Below are positions 5,121-45,395 of a stretch of DNA of 64,000 bases, one piece after another. The DNA is from Alphaproteobacteria bacterium (GTDB lineage: Bacteria; Pseudomonadota; Alphaproteobacteria; Rickettsiales; SXRF01). Each line of letters opens with the position of its first letter. Positions within the stretch are counted from its first letter, which is position 1. The notes under the pieces were generated by a model. The model saw only the letters and a program-made list of their open reading frames with translations, was not told the DNA's origin and did not search any database. The DNA lies in contig JAGVLW010000107.1 of NCBI GenBank assembly GCA_020054105.1, positions 4,645 through 68,644 on the forward strand, given 5' to 3'. The translations under genes and the position numbers were made by a program.

Positions 5121-5204
5121 GGTAACAGGGATCAGATAACAGGTAACAGACTATGGTCAGGCGCATTCTGCTCTCTTTACTGTTGTCCTTTTCCTGTCAC
5201 CTGC
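5121..5204. repeat. Family C heptamer inverted array (C1) spanning the yejA start
   Basis: GGTAACAGGGATCAGATAACAGGTAACAG, then ATG 5153, then CTGTTGTCCTTTTCCTGTCACCTG. The right arm encodes signal-peptide residues LLSFSCHLLP. Confidence 0.75.
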
Positions 5205-37700: not shown

Positions 37701-38434
37701 GCACGCAGCAAAAAGACAAGGCCAAAGCTACGCTGACCGCCGAACAGGTGCGCGGCTATCTGAAATCGCACCCGGACTTTCTCAAGAAAAACGCCGACAT
37801 GTTCGAAGGCCTGACGCCGCCTGCGCGCGAGCTCGGCGACGGCATCCTCGACTTCCAGCATTTCATGGTCAAGAACCTGCAAAAAGACAGCAAGGACCTC
37901 AAAGGCAAATACGAGCTGCTGATCGATTTTTGCCGCGACAACATGTCGGCGCAAAGCCAGGTGCACCAGGCGGCGCTGCGGCTGATCCGCGCGCGCAACC
38001 TCGAGCAATTGCTCGAAGCGGTGACGCAGGATTTGCTGAGCCTGTTCGACGTCGACGTCGTGCGCCTGGCCATGGAATCGGACATATTGCTCGACACCTC
38101 CTACGGCGACCAGGTCTATTCCGGCATCGTGTTCATCGAGCCGGGCACGAGCGTGGCGGCGTTGGGCGCTAAGAAGAACGTGCTGCTGGTCGATGATTGC
38201 ACCAAAAATCCGCCGCCGGGCTTCGAGCAGATTTTCGCCGACTGCGCCGGGCTGATCGAATCGTGCGCACTGCTCAAGCTCGAGCTCGAGATGGTCGATA
38301 AAAATATCCTGCTCGCTTTCGGCGTGCGCCACAAAGACCGTTTCCATAGCGGACAAGGCGTCGAGCTGCTGCATTTCCTGGCGCAAATCGTCGCGCACCA
38401 GCTCGATATTTACCTGGCGGATTTGACGGTGTGA
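37697..38434 (+). CDS. DUF484-family protein (YigA-like)
   Basis: 245 aa with N-terminal [12 protein letters not shown]. It lies immediately upstream of, and overlaps, xerC, which is the conserved DUF484-xerC pairing. Confidence 0.7.
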
Positions 38435-39357
38435 GTGAAAGGCTCCCGATCACCGGCGGATTGAACCAATCGGCGGAGGCATTTTTACACTGGCTGGAAA
38501 ACGTCAAGCGCGCCTCGCGCCACACGGTTATTTCCTATCAAAACGATCTCGGCCATTTTTTCACGTTCCTGTCTGGGCATTACGGCGCGAAAATCAACCT
38601 GTCGCATCTCAAGAAATTGCCGGCCCGGGACATCCGCGCCTGGCTGGCCTCGCGCCTGGCCGATTACGAGGCGGCGTCCAACGCCCGCGCGCTGTCGGCG
38701 ATTAAGCGGTTTTACCGCTGGCTGGAAAAAGAAGAGGGGGTGGAAAACGCCGCCATTTTCCACATACGCGGCCCCAAGCTCGGCAAGCCGCTGCCCAAGG
38801 CGCTGGGCGAGGCGCAGGCGGCGCAGGCGCTGGAATTCATCGCCACCCAGCATGAGGAAGCCTGGCTCAATGCCCGCGACCTCGCGCTGCTTTTGCTGAT
38901 GTATGGTTGCGGCCTGCGCATCGGCGAGGCGTTGTCGCTGTCGCCGGGCGACGTCCAGGGCGTCGATGCGCTGCGCATTACCGGCAAGGGCAATAAGCAG
39001 CGGCTGGTGCCGATGCTGCCGGTGGTCGCGCAGGCCATCGACACTTACAAATCTCTCTGCCCGCACCCGCTTTCCGCCAGCGCGCCGCTTTTTGTCGGCA
39101 AGCAGGGCAAGGCGCTCGATCCGGCTATTTTCCAGCTGCAGCTGCGCAAGCTGCGTACCGCCCTCAACCTGCCCGACAGCGCCACGCCGCACGCCTTCCG
39201 CCACAGCTTCGCCACCCACCTGCTTTCGGCCGGCGGTGATTTGCGCACCATCCAGGAATTGCTAGGCCACGCCTCGCTATCGACGACGCAACGCTATACG
39301 CATGTCGATAAGACCCGGCTGCTAAGCGCCTATCGCCAGGCGCATCCGAGAAAATAA
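38431..39357 (+). CDS. xerC: tyrosine site-specific recombinase XerC
   Basis: GLRIGEALSL, HAFRHSFATHLL and LLGHASLSTTQRYTHV contain the catalytic R..HxxR..Y set. GTGA overlap with the DUF484 gene. Confidence 0.9.
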   Translation: MSERLPITGGLNQSAEAFLHWLENVKRASRHTVISYQNDLGHFFTFLSGHYGAKINLSHLKKLPARDIRAWLASRLADYEAASNARALSAIKRFYRWLEKEEGVENAAIFHIRGPKLGKPLPKALGEAQAAQALEFIATQHEEAWLNARDLALLLLMYGCGLRIGEALSLSPGDVQGVDALRITGKGNKQRLVPMLPVVAQAIDTYKSLCPHPLSASAPLFVGKQGKALDPAIFQLQLRKLRTALNLPDSATPHAFRHSFATHLLSAGGDLRTIQELLGHASLSTTQRYTHVDKTRLLSAYRQAHPRK

Positions 39358-39412: not shown

Positions 39413-40240
39413 TTAGACGAACTCGTCCAGCAGCGACAGCTTGCCCGCCAATAGCTGGTTGGTCGGCTTATCGGTGCTGCCCGTCACGGCCGGGGGCTCC
39501 GGCTTGATCGGGGTGATGGTCACGCCGGCAAGAGGGCCGTCCGTTTTATCGGGCCCGCCCGCCAGGGCTACTTGCTTATTGGCCAGGCCGGCGATCGTGC
39601 CGACATTCTGGCCGAAATAGGCCTGGGCGATTTTTAAGTCGGCGCCGTCGACAGTGCCGTCATTGTTGATGTCGGACGCGCCGCCTTTAGCGCCATAATT
39701 GCTGAGAATGGCGGTGATGTCCTTGAAATTCACCTGGCCGTCGCCGTTGGCATCGCCGAAATCCTGGGTGGTGTATTGCTTGCGGGTGGCGTTGCCGACA
39801 TCGGTGCCGAAGCGGCTGAGCACGATGTTCTTGTCGGCATCGTTGATATTGCCGTCGCCATTGAGGTCGCCGTTGCCACCGGACTTGCCGTATTGGGCCA
39901 GCAGCGCGGTTACGTCGCTAAACGCTACCTTGCCGTCACCGTCTATGTCGCCAAGCAGGGCGTTCAACCCGGAGGCTTGCGGCGCCGGCTTTATTGGCAG
40001 CTGGGAAGTGATGGGTGGGGTGCGCACCGGCTGCGCAACGACAGGCGGCTCGGCGATGGGCGCGGTTGCCTGTGGCAGACGCGAAGCCTGCTTAACCACA
40101 TTGATATTCGCGGTAAGCGCCTGCGGCCTTACATTGGCAGAAAGCTGTTGCGGCGATTGCGCGGCGGTTTTGATTTTTAATCGCTTCAGGGAAGCGTAAG
40201 CCTGCGTGACCGCAGACAAAGATGCGATGGTATTTGACAT
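39413..40240 (-). CDS. dockerin-repeat (calcium-binding loop) protein, no Sec signal
   Basis: Two dockerin type I-like modules, each with paired DxNxDGxxxxxD loops: DIDGDGKVAFSDVTALL..DLNGDGNINDADKNIVL and DANGDGQVNFKDITAIL..DINNDGTVDGADLKIAQ. A Pro/Gln-rich linker is present. Confidence 0.6.
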   Translation of the reverse strand: MSNTIASLSAVTQAYASLKRLKIKTAAQSPQQLSANVRPQALTANINVVKQASRLPQATAPIAEPPVVAQPVRTPPITSQLPIKPAPQASGLNALLGDIDGDGKVAFSDVTALLAQYGKSGGNGDLNGDGNINDADKNIVLSRFGTDVGNATRKQYTTQDFGDANGDGQVNFKDITAILSNYGAKGGASDINNDGTVDGADLKIAQAYFGQNVGTIAGLANKQVALAGGPDKTDGPLAGVTITPIKPEPPAVTGSTDKPTNQLLAGKLSLLDEFV

Positions 40241-40532
40241 ATGATCCTCCTGATCGTCTTACTGTTGATACATTCAACCTAACAAATCTAATCCCGTTCT
40301 ACTTAAAAGTCAACCCGGCATATAGTTATTTAGCCGATAAATCCGTACGATATTCCTAAGAATTACTTAATGCGCCATGCTTATAGTAATAACATATATA
40401 TAGGGTATGCAACTACCGTGCCAGCCCACCGCACAGGAAATCCGCGGGTAATTTTAGGCAGGTAGGCAAGGAGCATAGGCAACGGATTCCTTCTTTGCAC
40501 AGCCCCGGCAAATAGTGTAATACACCTCCCAC

Positions 40533-40609
40533 GCACCCGTAGCTCAGCTGGATAGAGCGTTGCCCTCCGAAGGCAAAGGTCGCACGTTCGAATCGTGTCG
40601 GGTGCGCCA
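40533..40609 (+). tRNA. tRNA-Arg (anticodon CCG), CCA encoded
   Basis: Hand-folded cloverleaf: acceptor GCACCCG/CGGGTGC, D-arm GCTC..GAGC, anticodon stem TTGCC/GGCAA with loop CTCCGAA, T-arm GCACG-TTCGAAT-CGTGT, discriminator G plus CCA. Confidence 0.9.
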
Positions 40610-40810
40610 CCCTCCCAAACATAGCAAAACCTTAAATCACCATATATTGTGGTCAATATTTGTATTAATCTATATACAGTATGGCCGGATAAGAAATATG
40701 ACCGTTCCGACACGGAACTGTCATAGTAATGTAACAACTAAAACATTGTAATTTATATATATTTTTCATATAATGAGCATGTCTGGGATAGATTTCCTAT
40801 CGCAGATTAT

Positions 40811-40869
40811 GGTTCGCACATGACGGACTATGTTTTGTAAACATTAACTTATGGATGTGCGGTTTTTTT
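40811..40869 (+). promoter_or_regulatory. structured 5' leader / terminator-like stem upstream of virB2 paralog 1
   Basis: Outer stem CGCACAT...ATGTGCG enclosing inner hairpin ATGTTT-TGT-AAACAT, followed by T7. It lies 33 nt before the ATG. Confidence 0.55.
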
Positions 40870-40901
40870 AATTTAACAACAACAAAAAGAAGGGTGATTT
40901 T

Positions 40902-41330
40902 ATGAAGCCCCCAATTAAAGACCTAAGTACTAAAGACCTAAGCATCGCATGGCAATCTTGTTTGATGATCATGCTCTGCGCCGTCATCGCCATGATGCCG
41001 GATTTTGCCCTTGCACAGATTACTCCTAGAAATACACCGATGGGTAACGTATTGTGCTCCGTGGCTGGTTGGTTTACCGGCAACACGGGTAAGGGCCTTG
41101 CCACCATTGCCATCACCGTCATCGGTATCGGCGCACTCTTGGGTAAAGTATCCTGGGGTATGGCGATCATCGTCGGTGTCGGCGTTGCCATCGTGTTCGG
41201 CGCTGCCGGTATCGTCAGCGCGATGAACGCTGGCGCAGGCGATGTAAACACCACCTGCACTACAGGTGGCGGTGCAGGAGCTCTTCCCCCTCCCGGTGGA
41301 GATTTTATCCCGCCGATTGGAGCTGACTAA
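40902..41330 (+). CDS. virB2: VirB2/TrbC-family type IV secretion pilin, paralog 1
   Basis: A long signal peptide ends ALA/Q. Then NVLCSVAGWFTGNTGKGLATIAITVIGIGALLGKVSWGMAIIVGVGVAIVFGAAG parallels A. tumefaciens VirB2 (NNICTFILGPFGQSLAVLGIVAIGISWMFGRASLGLVAGVVGGIVIMFGA, from memory). Confidence 0.75.
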   Translation: MKPPIKDLSTKDLSIAWQSCLMIMLCAVIAMMPDFALAQITPRNTPMGNVLCSVAGWFTGNTGKGLATIAITVIGIGALLGKVSWGMAIIVGVGVAIVFGAAGIVSAMNAGAGDVNTTCTTGGGAGALPPPGGDFIPPIGAD

Positions 41331-41353
41331 TTTATATTATTTGGTGCAAAAAA

Positions 41354-41382
41354 ACCTTGCCGGAGCAATCCGGCAAGGTTTT
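41354..41382 (+). terminator. Rho-independent terminator after virB2 paralog 1
   Basis: ACCTTGCCGG-AGCAAT-CCGGCAAGGT followed by TTT. Confidence 0.75.
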
Positions 41383-41588
41383 ACAGACGGAAAATTCTAC
41401 GCGTAGTAGCGCTGAAGCCGTTATTATACGATATATAGCGGGAAAAAATTTAATTTAAGAAATATTCAGAAATATGCGCCGCCTATCACCGCCCACGGTC
41501 ACACAATTGTCACAAATAAAACTTTGTATTGGGTGAGTATTTTATCTAGACTGATCTTATCTGCTACAGATTTGTCTGTGACAGATAT

Positions 41589-41652
41589 GGTTCGCATATG
41601 ACGGTCTTCCTGCCTTTTTACAGGCACAGCCTATGGATATGCGGTTTTTTTT
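41589..41652 (+). promoter_or_regulatory. structured 5' leader / terminator-like stem upstream of virB2 paralog 2
   Basis: Outer stem CGCATAT...ATATGCG (a compensatory C>T/G>A change relative to copy 1) enclosing inner hairpin TGCCT-TTTTAC-AGGCA, followed by T8. Confidence 0.55.
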
Positions 41653-41683
41653 AATTGAAGTACAAGTCAAAGGGTAATTGTTT

Positions 41684-42037
41684 ATGAAAACCCAAACCAA
41701 AGACTTAAGCATCGCTTGGCAATCCTGCTTGATGGTCATGCTTGCTGCCGTCATCGCTATGATGCCGGACTTCGCTTACGCACAGATCGTTTCCCGCAAT
41801 ACGCCGATGGGTAACGTACTGTGCACCGTGGTTGGCTGGTTCACCGGCAACACCGGCAAGGGCCTTGCCACCATCGCTATCACCGTTATCGGTATCGGCG
41901 CACTCCTGGGTAAAGTATCCTGGGGTATGGCGATCATCGTCGGCGTTGGCGTTGCCATCGTATTCGGCGCTGCCGGTATCGTGGACAGCATGGGCGGCGG
42001 CGTCAACAACGCTTCCACCGGCGGTTGCACCACCTAA
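41684..42037 (+). CDS. virB2: VirB2/TrbC-family type IV secretion pilin, paralog 2
   Basis: The core is near-identical to paralog 1 (NVLCTVVGWFTGNTGKGLATIAITVIGIGALLGKVSWGMAIIVGVGVAIVFGAAG), but the C-terminal tail differs. The first ATG is at 41684; the track uses TTG 41678. Confidence 0.75.
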   Translation: MKTQTKDLSIAWQSCLMVMLAAVIAMMPDFAYAQIVSRNTPMGNVLCTVVGWFTGNTGKGLATIAITVIGIGALLGKVSWGMAIIVGVGVAIVFGAAGIVDSMGGGVNNASTGGCTT

Positions 42038-42064
42038 TCGCTTATTACTTGACTACAAAAAAAG

Positions 42065-42093
42065 CCTGCCGGAGCAATCCGGCAGGTTTTTTT
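42065..42093 (+). terminator. Rho-independent terminator after virB2 paralog 2 (also faces the convergent PEBP gene)
   Basis: CCTGCCGG-AGCAAT-CCGGCAGG followed by T7 and preceded by A7. The loop and inner stem match the paralog 1 terminator. Confidence 0.85.
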
Positions 42094-42108
42094 GTTGAGC
42101 TTGATGAA

Positions 42109-42777
42109 TTATTGTTTGTTGGTAAACGTGCCCACCATTTCGCCCCGGGCAAGCGTGTGCTTGTCGATCGCTTCCATCGCTTGCTTGCCGGTGAAATTTT
42201 CTTTCAGCCCCAGCGAAGGCACACCTAGCGCATAGACGATGAAATGATAATGATGCAGCCGCTCGTCGTTCCATGGCGGGCAGGGGCCGTCATAGCCGCC
42301 GAACGTGCCTTTCAAGAAACTCGCAAAGTCGTTTTGCCCGTTGATACCGTAAGCGGTTTTGCCGGTGGGCTTGCCGTCCGGCACCAGGCCTTCGCTGTCT
42401 TGCCCTTCGGCGATGCCGGTCAATGTGGCGGGAATGTCGACCAGCGCCCAGTGATAAAAATCCTGGCGCGGAAAATCGCCGGCGATGATTTTGCCTTCTT
42501 TATTGGCATCGTCGAACTTTGCCGGAACATCTTTGTCCACCACGATAATGGCATAGGATTGCGTGCCCGCCGGCGCGCCCGACCAGCTGACGGCCGGATT
42601 CACGTTGCCGCCATCCTTGGTCTTGCCCTTGCCGTCGGGGGCGCAGAAGGCGAATTTTTCGGCAATAAGCTTGTCGTTTTCGATGCCGGCGACGTTGACC
42701 GTCATCGGCGCGGTTTGCGCGAAGGCGGTGGTGGATAAAAACGACGCGGATAGCGCCAATAATGCGGTTTTTTGCAT
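42109..42777 (-). CDS. YbhB/YbcL-family PEBP (Raf kinase inhibitor-like) periplasmic protein
   Basis: Signal peptide ending AFA/Q, GGYDGPCPPWNDERLHHYHFIVYAL (the PEBP GPxPP...HxYxF motif), and NPAVSWSGAP. Confidence 0.8.
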   Translation of the reverse strand: MQKTALLALSASFLSTTAFAQTAPMTVNVAGIENDKLIAEKFAFCAPDGKGKTKDGGNVNPAVSWSGAPAGTQSYAIIVVDKDVPAKFDDANKEGKIIAGDFPRQDFYHWALVDIPATLTGIAEGQDSEGLVPDGKPTGKTAYGINGQNDFASFLKGTFGGYDGPCPPWNDERLHHYHFIVYALGVPSLGLKENFTGKQAMEAIDKHTLARGEMVGTFTNKQ

Positions 42778-43443: not shown

Positions 43444-44622
43444 ATGCCATTGCAATTCTTCCCCAACAAGCCGCATTTCGATTTCATGGGCAAACGCTGG
43501 TATGGCTTTGCCGTTTCCATCGCACTGACATTGCTGTCGCTCGGGCTGGTCGCCACGAAAGGCCTGAATCTCGGTATCGATTTCACCGGCGGCATCTTGA
43601 TGGAAATCCATACGCAGGAGCCGGCGGATCTATCCAAGATGCGCGGCGCGCTCGACAACCAGGGCTTCGGCGAAGTCAGCCTGCAAAATATCGGCGGCGA
43701 ACACGAGGTGATGATTCGCATCCAGGTGTCGGAAGCCGACGATCAGGCGGTGCTCACCGCCAAGGTGAAAGAATTGCTGGCCGCACAGATCGGCGAGGGC
43801 ATCGACTACCGCAAGATCGATTATGTCGGCCCGACCGTAGGCCAGGAGCTCATCGAAAACGGCATCATCGCCGTGCTTTTATCCTTTCTCTCGATCATGG
43901 TCTATGTGTGGTTTCGCTTCGAATGGCAGTATGGTTTCGGCGCCGTCCTCGCGCTCCTTCACGATGCGATCATGGTGGTGGGATTTTTCGCGCTCACGCG
44001 CTTCGAATTCGGCCTGACGGCGATTGCCGCCATCCTCACCATCGTCGGCTATTCGATCAACGATACGGTGGTGATCTATGATCGCATCCGCGAGAATATG
44101 CGCCGCTTCAAAAAAATGCCGGTCTTCGAGCTGCTCAATCTCAGCATCAACGAAACCCTCTCGCGCACCATCCTCACCGCCTCGACGACGCTGCTGGCGG
44201 CGCTGGCCCTGGCCCTGTTCGGCGGGCCGGTGATCGAGGGCTTCGCCTGGGCGATGGCGTTCGGCGTCGCCGTCGGCACTTATTCCTCCGTCTATATTTC
44301 GGCGCCGACGCTCATTTATTTGAAATTAAAAGAGGAGCAAACACAAGGAGAGAGCAAATTATCCCTCGATCCTCTTATACGGATGTTCGGAGCGTTATGG
44401 GTTTTAATTATCCCCATGGAAGCAATGGCATCTTTATTTTTATCTTATTCTTTATTGCAAACCATATTGTCTGTTGCCGTGCTAATTGGAGCCAAGGTCT
44501 ATCAAAATTATTTAATAAGAAAAATAGGAGAGAAATATCGGGTTACTTACATAGACGCTTTGGGAAGAATAGGATCCGTTTGCCTGATTCTTAAGCCGTT
44601 ATTTTGGTTTTTCCTGCAATGA
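43444..44622 (+). CDS. secF: protein translocase subunit SecF with ~95-aa AT-rich C-terminal extension
   Basis: FDFMGKRWYGFAVSIAL, LGIDFTGG and INDTVVIYDRIRE are SecF motifs. Homology ends near YISAPTLIYLK (about nt 44330). After that, composition drops and three extra hydrophobic segments follow. Confidence 0.85.
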   Translation: MPLQFFPNKPHFDFMGKRWYGFAVSIALTLLSLGLVATKGLNLGIDFTGGILMEIHTQEPADLSKMRGALDNQGFGEVSLQNIGGEHEVMIRIQVSEADDQAVLTAKVKELLAAQIGEGIDYRKIDYVGPTVGQELIENGIIAVLLSFLSIMVYVWFRFEWQYGFGAVLALLHDAIMVVGFFALTRFEFGLTAIAAILTIVGYSINDTVVIYDRIRENMRRFKKMPVFELLNLSINETLSRTILTASTTLLAALALALFGGPVIEGFAWAMAFGVAVGTYSSVYISAPTLIYLKLKEEQTQGESKLSLDPLIRMFGALWVLIIPMEAMASLFLSYSLLQTILSVAVLIGAKVYQNYLIRKIGEKYRVTYIDALGRIGSVCLILKPLFWFFLQ

Positions 44623-44627
44623 GCTAA

Positions 44628-45278
44628 TTGATGTCCTATATTTTCATGGATGAAAGCGGTTGCCTGGGATTTGATTTTAGTAAAAAAGGCACATCCGATT
44701 ATTTTATCGTCACTTTTTTATGCACCCCGCATAAACGGCCAATCGAAAAAATCGTCCGGCGTATTTTCGAGGGCATGTCGAAAGCAGAAAGAAATCGCTT
44801 AGGCGGCTCGCTCCATTCAAGCAAGGCATCGCCACGCACGCGCATGAAGCTTTTACACCAGCTTCACAAAAAAGAAGACGCCGTGATTATGCTGGTTCGG
44901 TTGAATAAACGCAAAGTCTATACGAAATTACACGACGAAAAACATGTGCTCTATAATTATGTTACCAATATCCTGCTCGACCGGATATTCAGCAAAAAAC
45001 TCGTTCCCTTAGACGAAACGGTACATTTAGTAGCCTCGCGCAGAGAAACCAATCGTTTCTTAAACGACAATTTTAAAGGCTATTTAAGCAAACAAATTAC
45101 CCGCAACCACCAATGCAAGATTACCGTGTCCATCCTCCCGCCTTCAGCAGAAAAGGGACTACAAGTTGTCGATTTTGCGAGTTGGGCGGCTTTCAGGAAA
45201 TACGAGCATGGTGACGCGAGCTATCTCGACATCATTAAACAGCTTATTATAGAAGACAATACCTTGTTCGGAGGGTGA
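44628..45278 (+). CDS. DUF3800-family protein
   Basis: The N-terminal YIFMDESGCLGFDF (DESG motif) and length fit DUF3800 as I recall it. The gene is AT-rich. Confidence 0.65.
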   Translation: MMSYIFMDESGCLGFDFSKKGTSDYFIVTFLCTPHKRPIEKIVRRIFEGMSKAERNRLGGSLHSSKASPRTRMKLLHQLHKKEDAVIMLVRLNKRKVYTKLHDEKHVLYNYVTNILLDRIFSKKLVPLDETVHLVASRRETNRFLNDNFKGYLSKQITRNHQCKITVSILPPSAEKGLQVVDFASWAAFRKYEHGDASYLDIIKQLIIEDNTLFGG

Positions 45279-45395
45279 GCAAAACGCCTGAAGCGCTTAT
45301 ATCGAGGAACCTACGGAACCCCACGCAATAGGACTTACTTTTGCTCACTTACCAGTATAAGCTAATATGCTTGGGCTAGCAAGCATTGTAATATA

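Follow-up and report, generated by a model that had tools for sequence, protein, structure and literature searches.

The stretch of DNA considered here, referred to as the window, comprises 64,000 nucleotides of an alphaproteobacterial contig assigned to the Rickettsiales (JAGVLW010000107.1, positions 4,645 to 68,644 of the forward strand). It corresponds to scaffold Ga0394682_101496 of JGI metagenome 3300038435. The subject of the analysis is a tandem pair of genes within it, virB2a and virB2b, which encode pilins of the TrbC/VirB2 family of type IV secretion systems (T4SS). The first of these genes (virB2a, 40902..41330, + strand) encodes a prepilin of 142 amino acids and the second (virB2b, 41684..42037, + strand) one of 117, counted from the ATG at 41684 that is used by the public gene call and by all relatives, and not from the TTG at 41678, which would give 119 amino acids. 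The pair is preceded by a gene for tRNA-Arg(CCG) (40533..40609, + strand; ARAGORN, and Rfam RF00005 at 66 bits) and followed by a convergent gene of the PEBP family (42109..42777, - strand; Pfam PF01161, E 1.4e-35). As the initial annotation of this DNA had described, each pilin gene lies downstream of the tRNA in a unit of about 780 bp that consists of a leader, an open reading frame (ORF) and a terminator; the two units align over about 630-720 nt with 81% column identity, and their start codons are 782 nt apart. The virB2a terminator (41355..41382, read from the sequence) has the form CCTTGCCGG-AGCAAT-CCGGCAAGG-TTTT with an A-run ahead of it, and the virB2b terminator (42065..42093, found by a terminator scan) has the form CCTGCCGG-AGCAAT-CCGGCAGG-T7 and is bidirectional, being common to the convergent PEBP gene. 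The inner stem and loop CCGG-AGCAAT-CCGG occurs in both, as had been noticed before.

The assignment of the two ORFs to the TrbC/VirB2 family, which the initial annotation had made from the letters of the sequence, is borne out by a hidden Markov model search: both proteins match PF04956 well above its cut-off of 27.9 bits (virB2a, E 5.9e-19, 68.5 bits; virB2b, E 2e-19, 70 bits). Both also have the layout of this family, with a long signal peptide that ends in an AxA site, two hydrophobic helices and a short polar loop. The signal peptides end DFALA/Q in virB2a and DFAYA/Q in virB2b, in agreement with the A(L/Y)A/Q pattern reported earlier, and the earlier description of the mature cores as almost identical corresponds to 83% identity between the two proteins over 114 residues. 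The best sequence match in the PDB is the T-pilin of Agrobacterium tumefaciens (8EXH), which covers the whole mature core (E 0.006) and sets NICTF against NVLCTV, the cysteine included. In an AlphaFold2 model of virB2a (mean predicted local distance difference test score 69), helices span residues 11-38 (the signal peptide), 46-80 and 85-108, with a GKVSWG loop between the latter two and a disordered tail beyond them. The window pilins thus resemble A. tumefaciens VirB2 (8EXH, 8CUE) in Pfam family, in the long signal peptide cut after Ala-x-Ala (AAA/Q in the T-pilin), in the two-helix hairpin, and in a cysteine at the start of helix 1, which in the T-pilin aligns with NVLC of the window pilins.

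The family departs from the T-pilin at its ends. The T-pilin contains a single cysteine and is closed into a ring by head-to-tail cyclisation, while all 90 of the 90 family members examined have a pair of cysteines, one near the N-terminus and a second located 0-23 residues from the C-terminus (Cys52 and Cys119 in virB2a), together with a variable tail that extends beyond the T-pilin C-terminus. The residue that follows the signal cleavage site is not conserved in the family, and sequence variation is concentrated in two segments, one ahead of the first cysteine and the other around the last. The two invariant cysteines are probably linked by a disulfide, which would fasten the two ends of the hairpin to each other and so replace cyclisation, and the C-terminal tail is predicted to be exposed at the surface. 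It is in this tail that the two copies differ, as had been pointed out: virB2b has a short tail ending GGCTT, while the tail of virB2a after its C-terminal cysteine (TTGGGAGALPPPGGDFIPPIGAD) is 23 residues long and rich in Gly and Pro, and no other among 90 relatives is as long. Elsewhere, too, paired copies differ chiefly in the tail, as in the case of P0089 and P0111, which lie on one 1.2-Mb contig. In four related loci, genes for GT1 glycosyltransferases, sulfotransferases or arylsulfotransferases lie directly upstream of the unlinked virB2 (L003:8828-9769, L005:8017-9754, L010:7846-8805 and L012:7249-8901); such genes are missing from the tRNA-virB2 interval of the window itself. Since the pilin tails are rich in Ser, Thr, Asn and Gly and the transferase genes adjoin, modification of the pilin is possible.

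The divergence between the copies indicates that both are maintained and that the duplication is not recent. Over 95 shared codons the synonymous divergence dS is 0.57, which implies an old duplication, and the nonsynonymous divergence dN is 0.053, giving a ratio dN/dS of 0.09, which implies that both copies are under purifying selection. A pilin phylogeny and a check for recombination or gene conversion between the copies had both been proposed by the initial annotation. In the maximum-likelihood tree the window copies are sisters (support 99/87), and the tandem pairs of three other loci (L009, L024 and L026) are likewise each composed of sisters, so that duplication at this locus must have occurred repeatedly and independently. 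The check gave no significant sign of gene conversion between virB2a and virB2b, the longest identical run being 37 nt (P = 0.09). In its short tail, its short branch in the tree and a G+C content at third codon positions of 0.72, which is like that of its neighbours, virB2b looks like the canonical orthologue. The other copy, virB2a, looks like the derived one; it has a third-position G+C content of 0.57, a branch twice as long as that of virB2b, and a five-residue repeat, KDLST-KDLSI, within its signal peptide.

The position of these genes on the chromosome can be compared across many species. A scan in which each species was represented by one genome produced 96 stretches with homologues, the best 80 of which were taken as loci (denoted here by L numbers); all are from metagenome-assembled genomes (MAGs), which their submitters have labelled Rickettsiales, Alphaproteobacteria or Pseudomonadota. 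In 20 of the related loci, counted at the species level, a pilin gene lies directly upstream of and convergent with the PEBP gene, which is followed by the genes for Nfu, SecF and RibF. Where the contigs of relatives are long enough, PriA, transaldolase, DUF484 and XerC are found upstream of the pilin, and the tRNA-Arg(CCG) adjoins XerC in seven relatives (L003, L005, L008, L010, L011, L012 and L027), so that the locus order in relatives reads XerC, tRNA-Arg(CCG), virB2, PEBP, Nfu, SecF. The same landmarks are present in the window, whose genes are those of housekeeping and central metabolism (ATP synthase, PriA, transaldolase, XerC, PEBP, Nfu, SecF, RibF and LspA, along with M16 peptidases, PGI, MutL, PurH and a large glutamate dehydrogenase). 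A host-associated lifestyle, which the initial annotation had inferred, is on such ordinary gene content no more than a possibility. Across species the pilin is 75-88% identical, compared with 55-73% for PEBP, PriA and XerC. Conservation of gene order in about 20 species-level relatives implies that the pilin locus belongs to the vertically inherited core chromosome, and by this comparison it is an old, inherited part of that chromosome and not a recently acquired island.

Alignment of the upstream regions reveals a conserved direct repeat, TGTCAY-N5-TGTMAY, ahead of both window genes. The box of copy a (40719..40735, + strand; TGTCATAGTAATGTAAC) is a perfect match, with two TGTMAY half-sites 11 bp apart, and lies 183 nt before the ATG; that of copy b (41497..41513, + strand; GGTCACACAATTGTCAC) has one mismatch and lies 187 nt before the ATG. 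The window has a third match, at 5184, which is no more than chance would give; the background frequency of TGTMAY-N5-TGTMAY is 0.09 per kb over 2.3 Mb of related loci. The box precedes 59 of the 92 virB2 genes of the family, and 41 of the 52 that are linked to an operon. The operons that coexist with an unlinked pilin (L073 and L076) are included in these counts. The box also stands ahead of several virB4 genes, and among 18 other perfect boxes at least nine again stand ahead of virB2 or virB4. Some operon promoters, such as that of L045, contain three to four phased repeats that end right before a -10-like hexamer. Because the box is common to the unlinked pilins and to both types of T4SS operon, it argues for their co-regulation.

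The Pho-box core motif in Escherichia coli is CTGTCAT, arranged in direct repeats 11 bp apart (PMC4415409). The half-site and the 11-bp phasing of the window boxes are the same, and both boxes contain at least two TGTCAT-like 7-bp repeats with a 4-bp spacer, as PhoB-dependent promoters do. The box is therefore predicted to be the site of a response regulator of the OmpR/PhoB type, which probably co-regulates the unlinked pilins and the T4SS. Nearly all of the boxes found are associated with T4SS genes, and for this reason a dedicated PhoB-like regulator is as possible as PhoB itself. Downstream of the box in copy a lies a sigma-70-like promoter (40746..40774, + strand) composed of TTGTAA, a 17-nt spacer and TATAAT, which agrees with the consensus at 10 of 12 positions and whose -35 and -10 columns are conserved in relatives; the promoter assigned by alignment to copy b (41524..41552, + strand) has TTGTAT, a 17-nt spacer and TAGACT at the same offset from the box. 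Two genes in relatives stand close to this system. In one relative a hybrid histidine kinase with HisKA, HATPase and REC domains (L011:8272-9843) is encoded immediately ahead of the unlinked virB2 and on the same strand, and it is a possible candidate for the sensor of the regulator that binds the box. In another (L063:8306-9731) a perfect box stands before the gene for an RTX-repeat protein of 440 aa, with a T4SS operon following closely downstream; this protein may be a member of the regulon or a secreted substrate.

Between promoter and start codon, the leader of each copy folds into two hairpins, P1 and P2. Transcripts are predicted to start at about 40780 in copy a and about 41559 in copy b. 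In copy a, P1 (40782..40806, + strand; TCTG-GATAG...CTATC-CAGA, by folding) lies at or beside the inferred 5' end of the mRNA, and in copy b it occupies 41560..41585 (+ strand; by folding and the anchored-stem test). This test was used to score P1 because its 3' arm is out of register in MAFFT and covariance-model alignments; in 24 leaders the stem anchored at a conserved ATCT motif, just past the inferred transcript start, has a mean length of 7.0 bp, compared with 4.2 in shuffles (P<1e-4), and at its fourth pair 11 leaders have G-C while 10 have A-U. P2 was identified in both copies by folding, RNAalifold and covariation. In copy a (40815..40869, + strand) it has the stem CGCACAT...ATGTGCG followed by G and U7, so that it has the shape of a terminator and is a putative attenuator, and in copy b (41593..41652, + strand) the stem CGCATAT...ATATGCG followed by G and U8. 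The U-run is thus 7-8 nt long, at 40863-40869 in copy a and 41645-41652 in copy b, and 30-35 nt separate the end of P2 from the start codon. When the leaders of 15 species are simply aligned with MAFFT, RNAalifold recovers a 6-bp P2 stem, in which compensatory changes occur at six of six pairs and 91% of cells pair; double changes number 21 cells, compared with 7.4 +/- 2.2 in shuffles, and none of 500 shuffles reaches 21. One such compensatory change, from C-G to U-A at the fifth pair, separates copy a from copy b. P2 therefore has the stable stem and U-run of an intrinsic terminator, together with covariation.

The hairpin followed by a T-run sets the leaders of the unlinked pilin clade (-11.1 kcal/mol, versus -4.5 by chance, P < 1e-4) apart from the operon-linked leaders, in which it is essentially missing (-3.0 versus -1.8 kcal/mol, with 30 of 47 leaders having none). 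Within the unlinked clade the U-run follows the P2 stem in nearly all members, even where the sequence of the stem is unrelated. Rfam has no family for the leader, and every non-tRNA match is far below its gathering score. A covariance model built here (R1), run over 758 kb, recovers the 15 leaders of its own seed and nothing else; two of these are the sole sites in the window, so that the model is specific and adds no new members. On the sequences compared, the two-hairpin leader is specific to the unlinked pilin clade, and P2 is, by its shape alone, a putative attenuator or tuner of read-through. The motifs AUGGAU and AGGGAC are also present in P2, and binding of the CsrA type at these motifs is a speculative possibility. 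In several species (L003, L007, L014, L017 and L018) as well as in the window (40814-40861), GACGG and C(C/U)A(G/U)GGA are conserved inside a P2 loop that is otherwise variable; these nucleotides could be a motif for binding a ligand or protein, or the partners of a pseudoknot.

No other T4SS gene was found in the 64-kb window by tblastn with two divergent sets of VirB4/6/8/9/10/11/D4 proteins, as the initial annotation had stated. Three relatives, however, combine the unlinked pilin with a virB2-virB4-virB6 set at another locus. In one MAG that contributes two loci (L011 and L076), L076 has three copies of virB2 followed by virB4, B6, B8, B9, B10, B11 and virD4, all of them Pfam-confirmed; a second MAG (L001 and L073) has an unlinked pilin together with T4SS genes elsewhere; and in a third case the two loci (L023 and L108) lie about 70 kb apart on one 468-kb contig. 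The last of these carries virB2-virB4-virB6 (L108:9556-13943), and the 8 kb that follow contain none of the genes from virB8 to virD4; the T4SS of at least one relative is therefore split, and in this it comes nearer to the rvh layout. Among more distant members of the family, nearly every gene stands at the head of a contiguous virB2-B4-B6-B8-B9-B10-B11-D4 operon. In the tree, the PEBP-adjacent pilins form one clade that is nested among the operon-linked pilins; two members of this clade (L020 and L022) still precede virB4, and a more distant relative has virB2 and virB4 as a pair immediately beside secF (L059:9944-13793). Together these three observations suggest that the unlinked gene descended from an operon copy, and they contain a hint that the virB2-PEBP-nfu-secF site may once have held more T4SS genes. 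A metagenome scan with a VirB4 alignment gave, among the matches listed (at least 80 loci), none from the sample of the window, Ga0394682. That the genome of the window itself encodes a T4SS is what we infer from co-occurrence in the three relatives and from the shared box. Genes for a TraX-like protein (of the F-pilin acetylase family) and a RidA/YjgF-like protein are conserved in divergent orientation upstream of the contiguous T4SS operons (L045:7983-9540 and L048:8537-9810).

The reading that we prefer, to which we assign a probability of about 0.72, is that virB2a and virB2b are two functional, vertically inherited paralogues of a VirB2/TrbC major pilin at a fixed PEBP-nfu-secF site in an uncultured Rickettsiales-like clade. 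It draws on the family membership, synteny, purifying selection, conservation of the box, covariation of the leader RNA and the cysteine pair described above. Each copy would be a self-contained transcription unit, in which the Pho-box-like repeat is probably the site of an OmpR/PhoB-type response regulator and is followed by the sigma-70-like promoter. P1 would stand at the 5' end of the leader, P2 with its U-run would probably gate or tune read-through, and a Shine-Dalgarno sequence and the ORF would follow, closed by a strong terminator. The prepilin would be inserted in the inner membrane and cut after AxA, the cysteine at the start of helix 1 and the one past helix 2 would probably be joined in a disulfide that stands in for the cyclisation of T-pilin and P-pilin, and the pilin would then be passed to a T4SS encoded elsewhere in the genome. 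Since the copies have the same helical core, both can use the same machine, and since they differ in the exposed C-terminal tail they would provide two surface variants of one pilus.

Several results weigh against this reading or parts of it. Both proteins stay below the cut-off of the NCBIfam model NF010431, an equivalog for the VirB2 of Ti plasmids, with 17.2 and 19.4 bits where 103 are required. In a Foldseek search the top three matches are T4SS pilins, including the T-pilus and the cyclised H-pilus (template-modelling score to target 0.62), at E-values of 0.7-6, although a weak E-value is expected for a small helical hairpin. In a classical PhoB promoter the box replaces the -35 element and lies about 10 nt upstream of the -10 element. 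In the window, by contrast, about 33 nt lie between the box and the -10 element downstream of it, and a -35-like TTGTAA is present besides the box, so that the geometry is unlike that of a classical PhoB promoter. No regulator gene is linked to the box in the window, and none stands beside the T4SS operons of relatives, where the conserved upstream neighbours are the RidA-like and TraX-like genes. Finally, when the leader was inspected by eye, no alternative antiterminator pairing was obvious.

The initial annotation had read the locus as an AT-rich islet at the tRNA gene, and a recent insertion at tRNA-Arg(CCG), with the orphan pilins left over from a mobile conjugative element, would indeed fit the low overall G+C content, the tRNA just upstream, a tyrosine recombinase gene 1.2 kb away, and the variation of the tRNA-to-virB2 interval among relatives from 0.7 to 8 kb. 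The drop in composition is real, but it is limited to non-coding DNA, because the G+C content of the pilin ORFs (0.55 and 0.57) matches the window mean of 0.58; the four spacers have 0.30-0.43, and other, unrelated spacers of the window are equally AT-rich (0.33-0.38). Repeats of the tRNA within the window are no longer than 11 nt, which is the chance level, and the statement that no tRNA-derived repeat is visible therefore stands. The companion statement that there is no integrase holds for an island integrase, but there is one tyrosine recombinase, the housekeeping XerC (38431..39357, + strand; Pfam and synteny), which has a DUF484 gene ahead of it and is a conserved upstream landmark, syntenic in relatives; the tRNA is its neighbour there and not an island attachment site. 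The variable intervals of relatives encode glycosyl-, sulfo- and arylsulfotransferases, a HerA-like ATPase and a hybrid histidine kinase, with no integrase, and virB2 adjoins PEBP in 20 relatives, including loci without a nearby tRNA. A tRNA-linked island was rejected on the absence of a direct repeat and of an island integrase, on the typical composition and on the recurrence of the same site in 20 relatives, and this explanation is largely refuted and very improbable. Even less credible, by a small step, is that the tandem pair is an assembly artefact in which two strain variants of one gene were joined head to tail. The source is a metagenome assembly, no public sequencing run was found to contain this stretch, and in one related MAG (JAJTHB01) virB2 is cut by the ends of two contigs (L025 and L027), of which one carries XerC and the other PEBP, a break that was itself probably caused by a tandem pilin pair that split the assembly. 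The dS of 0.57, the different leaders, loops and tails and the unique spacer DNA between the copies speak against such a join, and tandem pairs recur independently on other contigs (L009, L024 and L026, among others).

Two further explanations concern function and carry more weight. The pilins might be relics of a lost T4SS, or might have a T4SS-independent role, for example as small membrane or envelope proteins, in a genome that has no matching machine. In line with this, the divergent virB2 copies of the operons with which the unlinked clade coexists (L073, L076 and L108) are farther from it than are the pilins of one operon type, in which VirB4 shares about 31-35% identity with the VirB4 of L076, and the virB2-virB4 pair that abuts secF in L059 points to a site that once had more T4SS genes. 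On the other hand, the box is shared with T4SS operons of both types, which argues for co-regulation; conservation of the helical core is strong, and the core aligns to the T-pilin; and a T4SS is present in every relative in which both loci are visible. We regard the relic explanation as improbable, though far less so than the islet or the artefact. The alternative with the best prospects concerns P2 alone, which might be an element that stabilises the mRNA or binds a protein, or the 3' terminus of a separate short RNA, the pilin then always being expressed through read-through. The lack of an antiterminator alternative, the location of P1 at the inferred 5' end of the transcript, like that of stabilising hairpins, and the conserved GACGG and YAKGGA in the P2 loop of several species all fit such a role; the U-run after the stem in nearly all members of the unlinked clade, which is the defining shape of an intrinsic terminator, does not. 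A role of P2 other than attenuation is thus a serious but minority possibility. The preferred reading can also be sharpened into the proposal of a distinct T4SS major pilin that is closed by a disulfide, transcribed apart from its machine and controlled through a PhoB-type 'vir box' that T4SS operons have as well, and gated by an undescribed two-hairpin attenuator confined to the clade; in this complete form the proposal is tentative and, taken as a whole, rather doubtful.

To our knowledge, pathogenic Rickettsiales are characterised by scattered virB2 paralogues, whose regulation and separation from the machine are poorly understood. The initial annotation had drawn a parallel to the virB2 paralogues of rvh-type systems, and among described systems the scattered or tandem paralogues of Rickettsiales do come closest. 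The parallel holds in that the window genes are tandem and unlinked from T4SS genes in the 64-kb window, features shared with the Anaplasmataceae (Anaplasma phagocytophilum, A. marginale and Ehrlichia species), in which tandem virB2 copies lie away from most T4SS genes. In Anaplasma the VirB2 paralogues have two hypervariable regions, one before the N-terminal Cys and one near the C-terminus, and conserved helices (PMC3556328), and the window family is variable at the same two regions; in Ehrlichia the helices are again conserved and the termini divergent, with virB2-1 separate from the other copies (PMC7789307). The parallel is weaker in the layout of the machine as seen in relatives, where the T4SS is mostly one contiguous operon: those of L076, L022 and L073 are contiguous with single copies of virB4/6/8/9, unlike the split rvh layout with its duplicated genes, while L108 has virB2-B4-B6 only. 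It also differs in that the paralogues of the Anaplasmataceae adjoin virB4-2 and are about 26% identical, whereas here the identity is 83% and there is no virB4 within 64 kb, and in that the window family varies less than the housekeeping genes beside it and keeps one chromosomal address in many species. The contrast with the T-pilin gene is of another kind, as that is the second gene of the virB operon and is controlled by VirG and the vir box. Judged by these comparisons, the window pilins are bona fide members of the TrbC/VirB2 family that would work like the scattered virB2 paralogues of Rickettsiales.

What is new in this locus is the fixed and widely conserved chromosomal address, the box that T4SS operons have as well, and the cysteine pair together with the clade-specific leader. 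The same scattered-pilin design is here found in the free-living-sized genomes of uncultured relatives, with clear cis-elements, and the box, the leader terminator and the cysteine pair could explain how the supply of pilin is uncoupled from the synthesis of the machine. If the preferred reading is correct, tandem copies such as the long-tailed virB2a would let the cell alter the surface of the pilus while leaving the machine untouched, and the neighbouring glycosyl- and sulfotransferases of relatives hint at a modified, Ser/Thr-rich tail. The main outcome is nevertheless corrective, in that the locus is placed in the core chromosome and not in an acquired islet.

Two other features of the window lie near the pilin locus. 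A protein of 275 aa resembling dockerin and EF-hand proteins, with four calcium loops, is encoded between XerC and the tRNA (39413-40240, - strand; Pfam Dockerin_1, E 6e-9); it has no tblastn match among the 80 related loci and is therefore specific to the genome of the window. Beyond the pilins, an AT-rich pocket at 44250-45300 (G+C content 0.36-0.45) contains a DUF3800 gene right after secF, and in this case, unlike that of the pilins, it is the coding region itself that is compositionally atypical.

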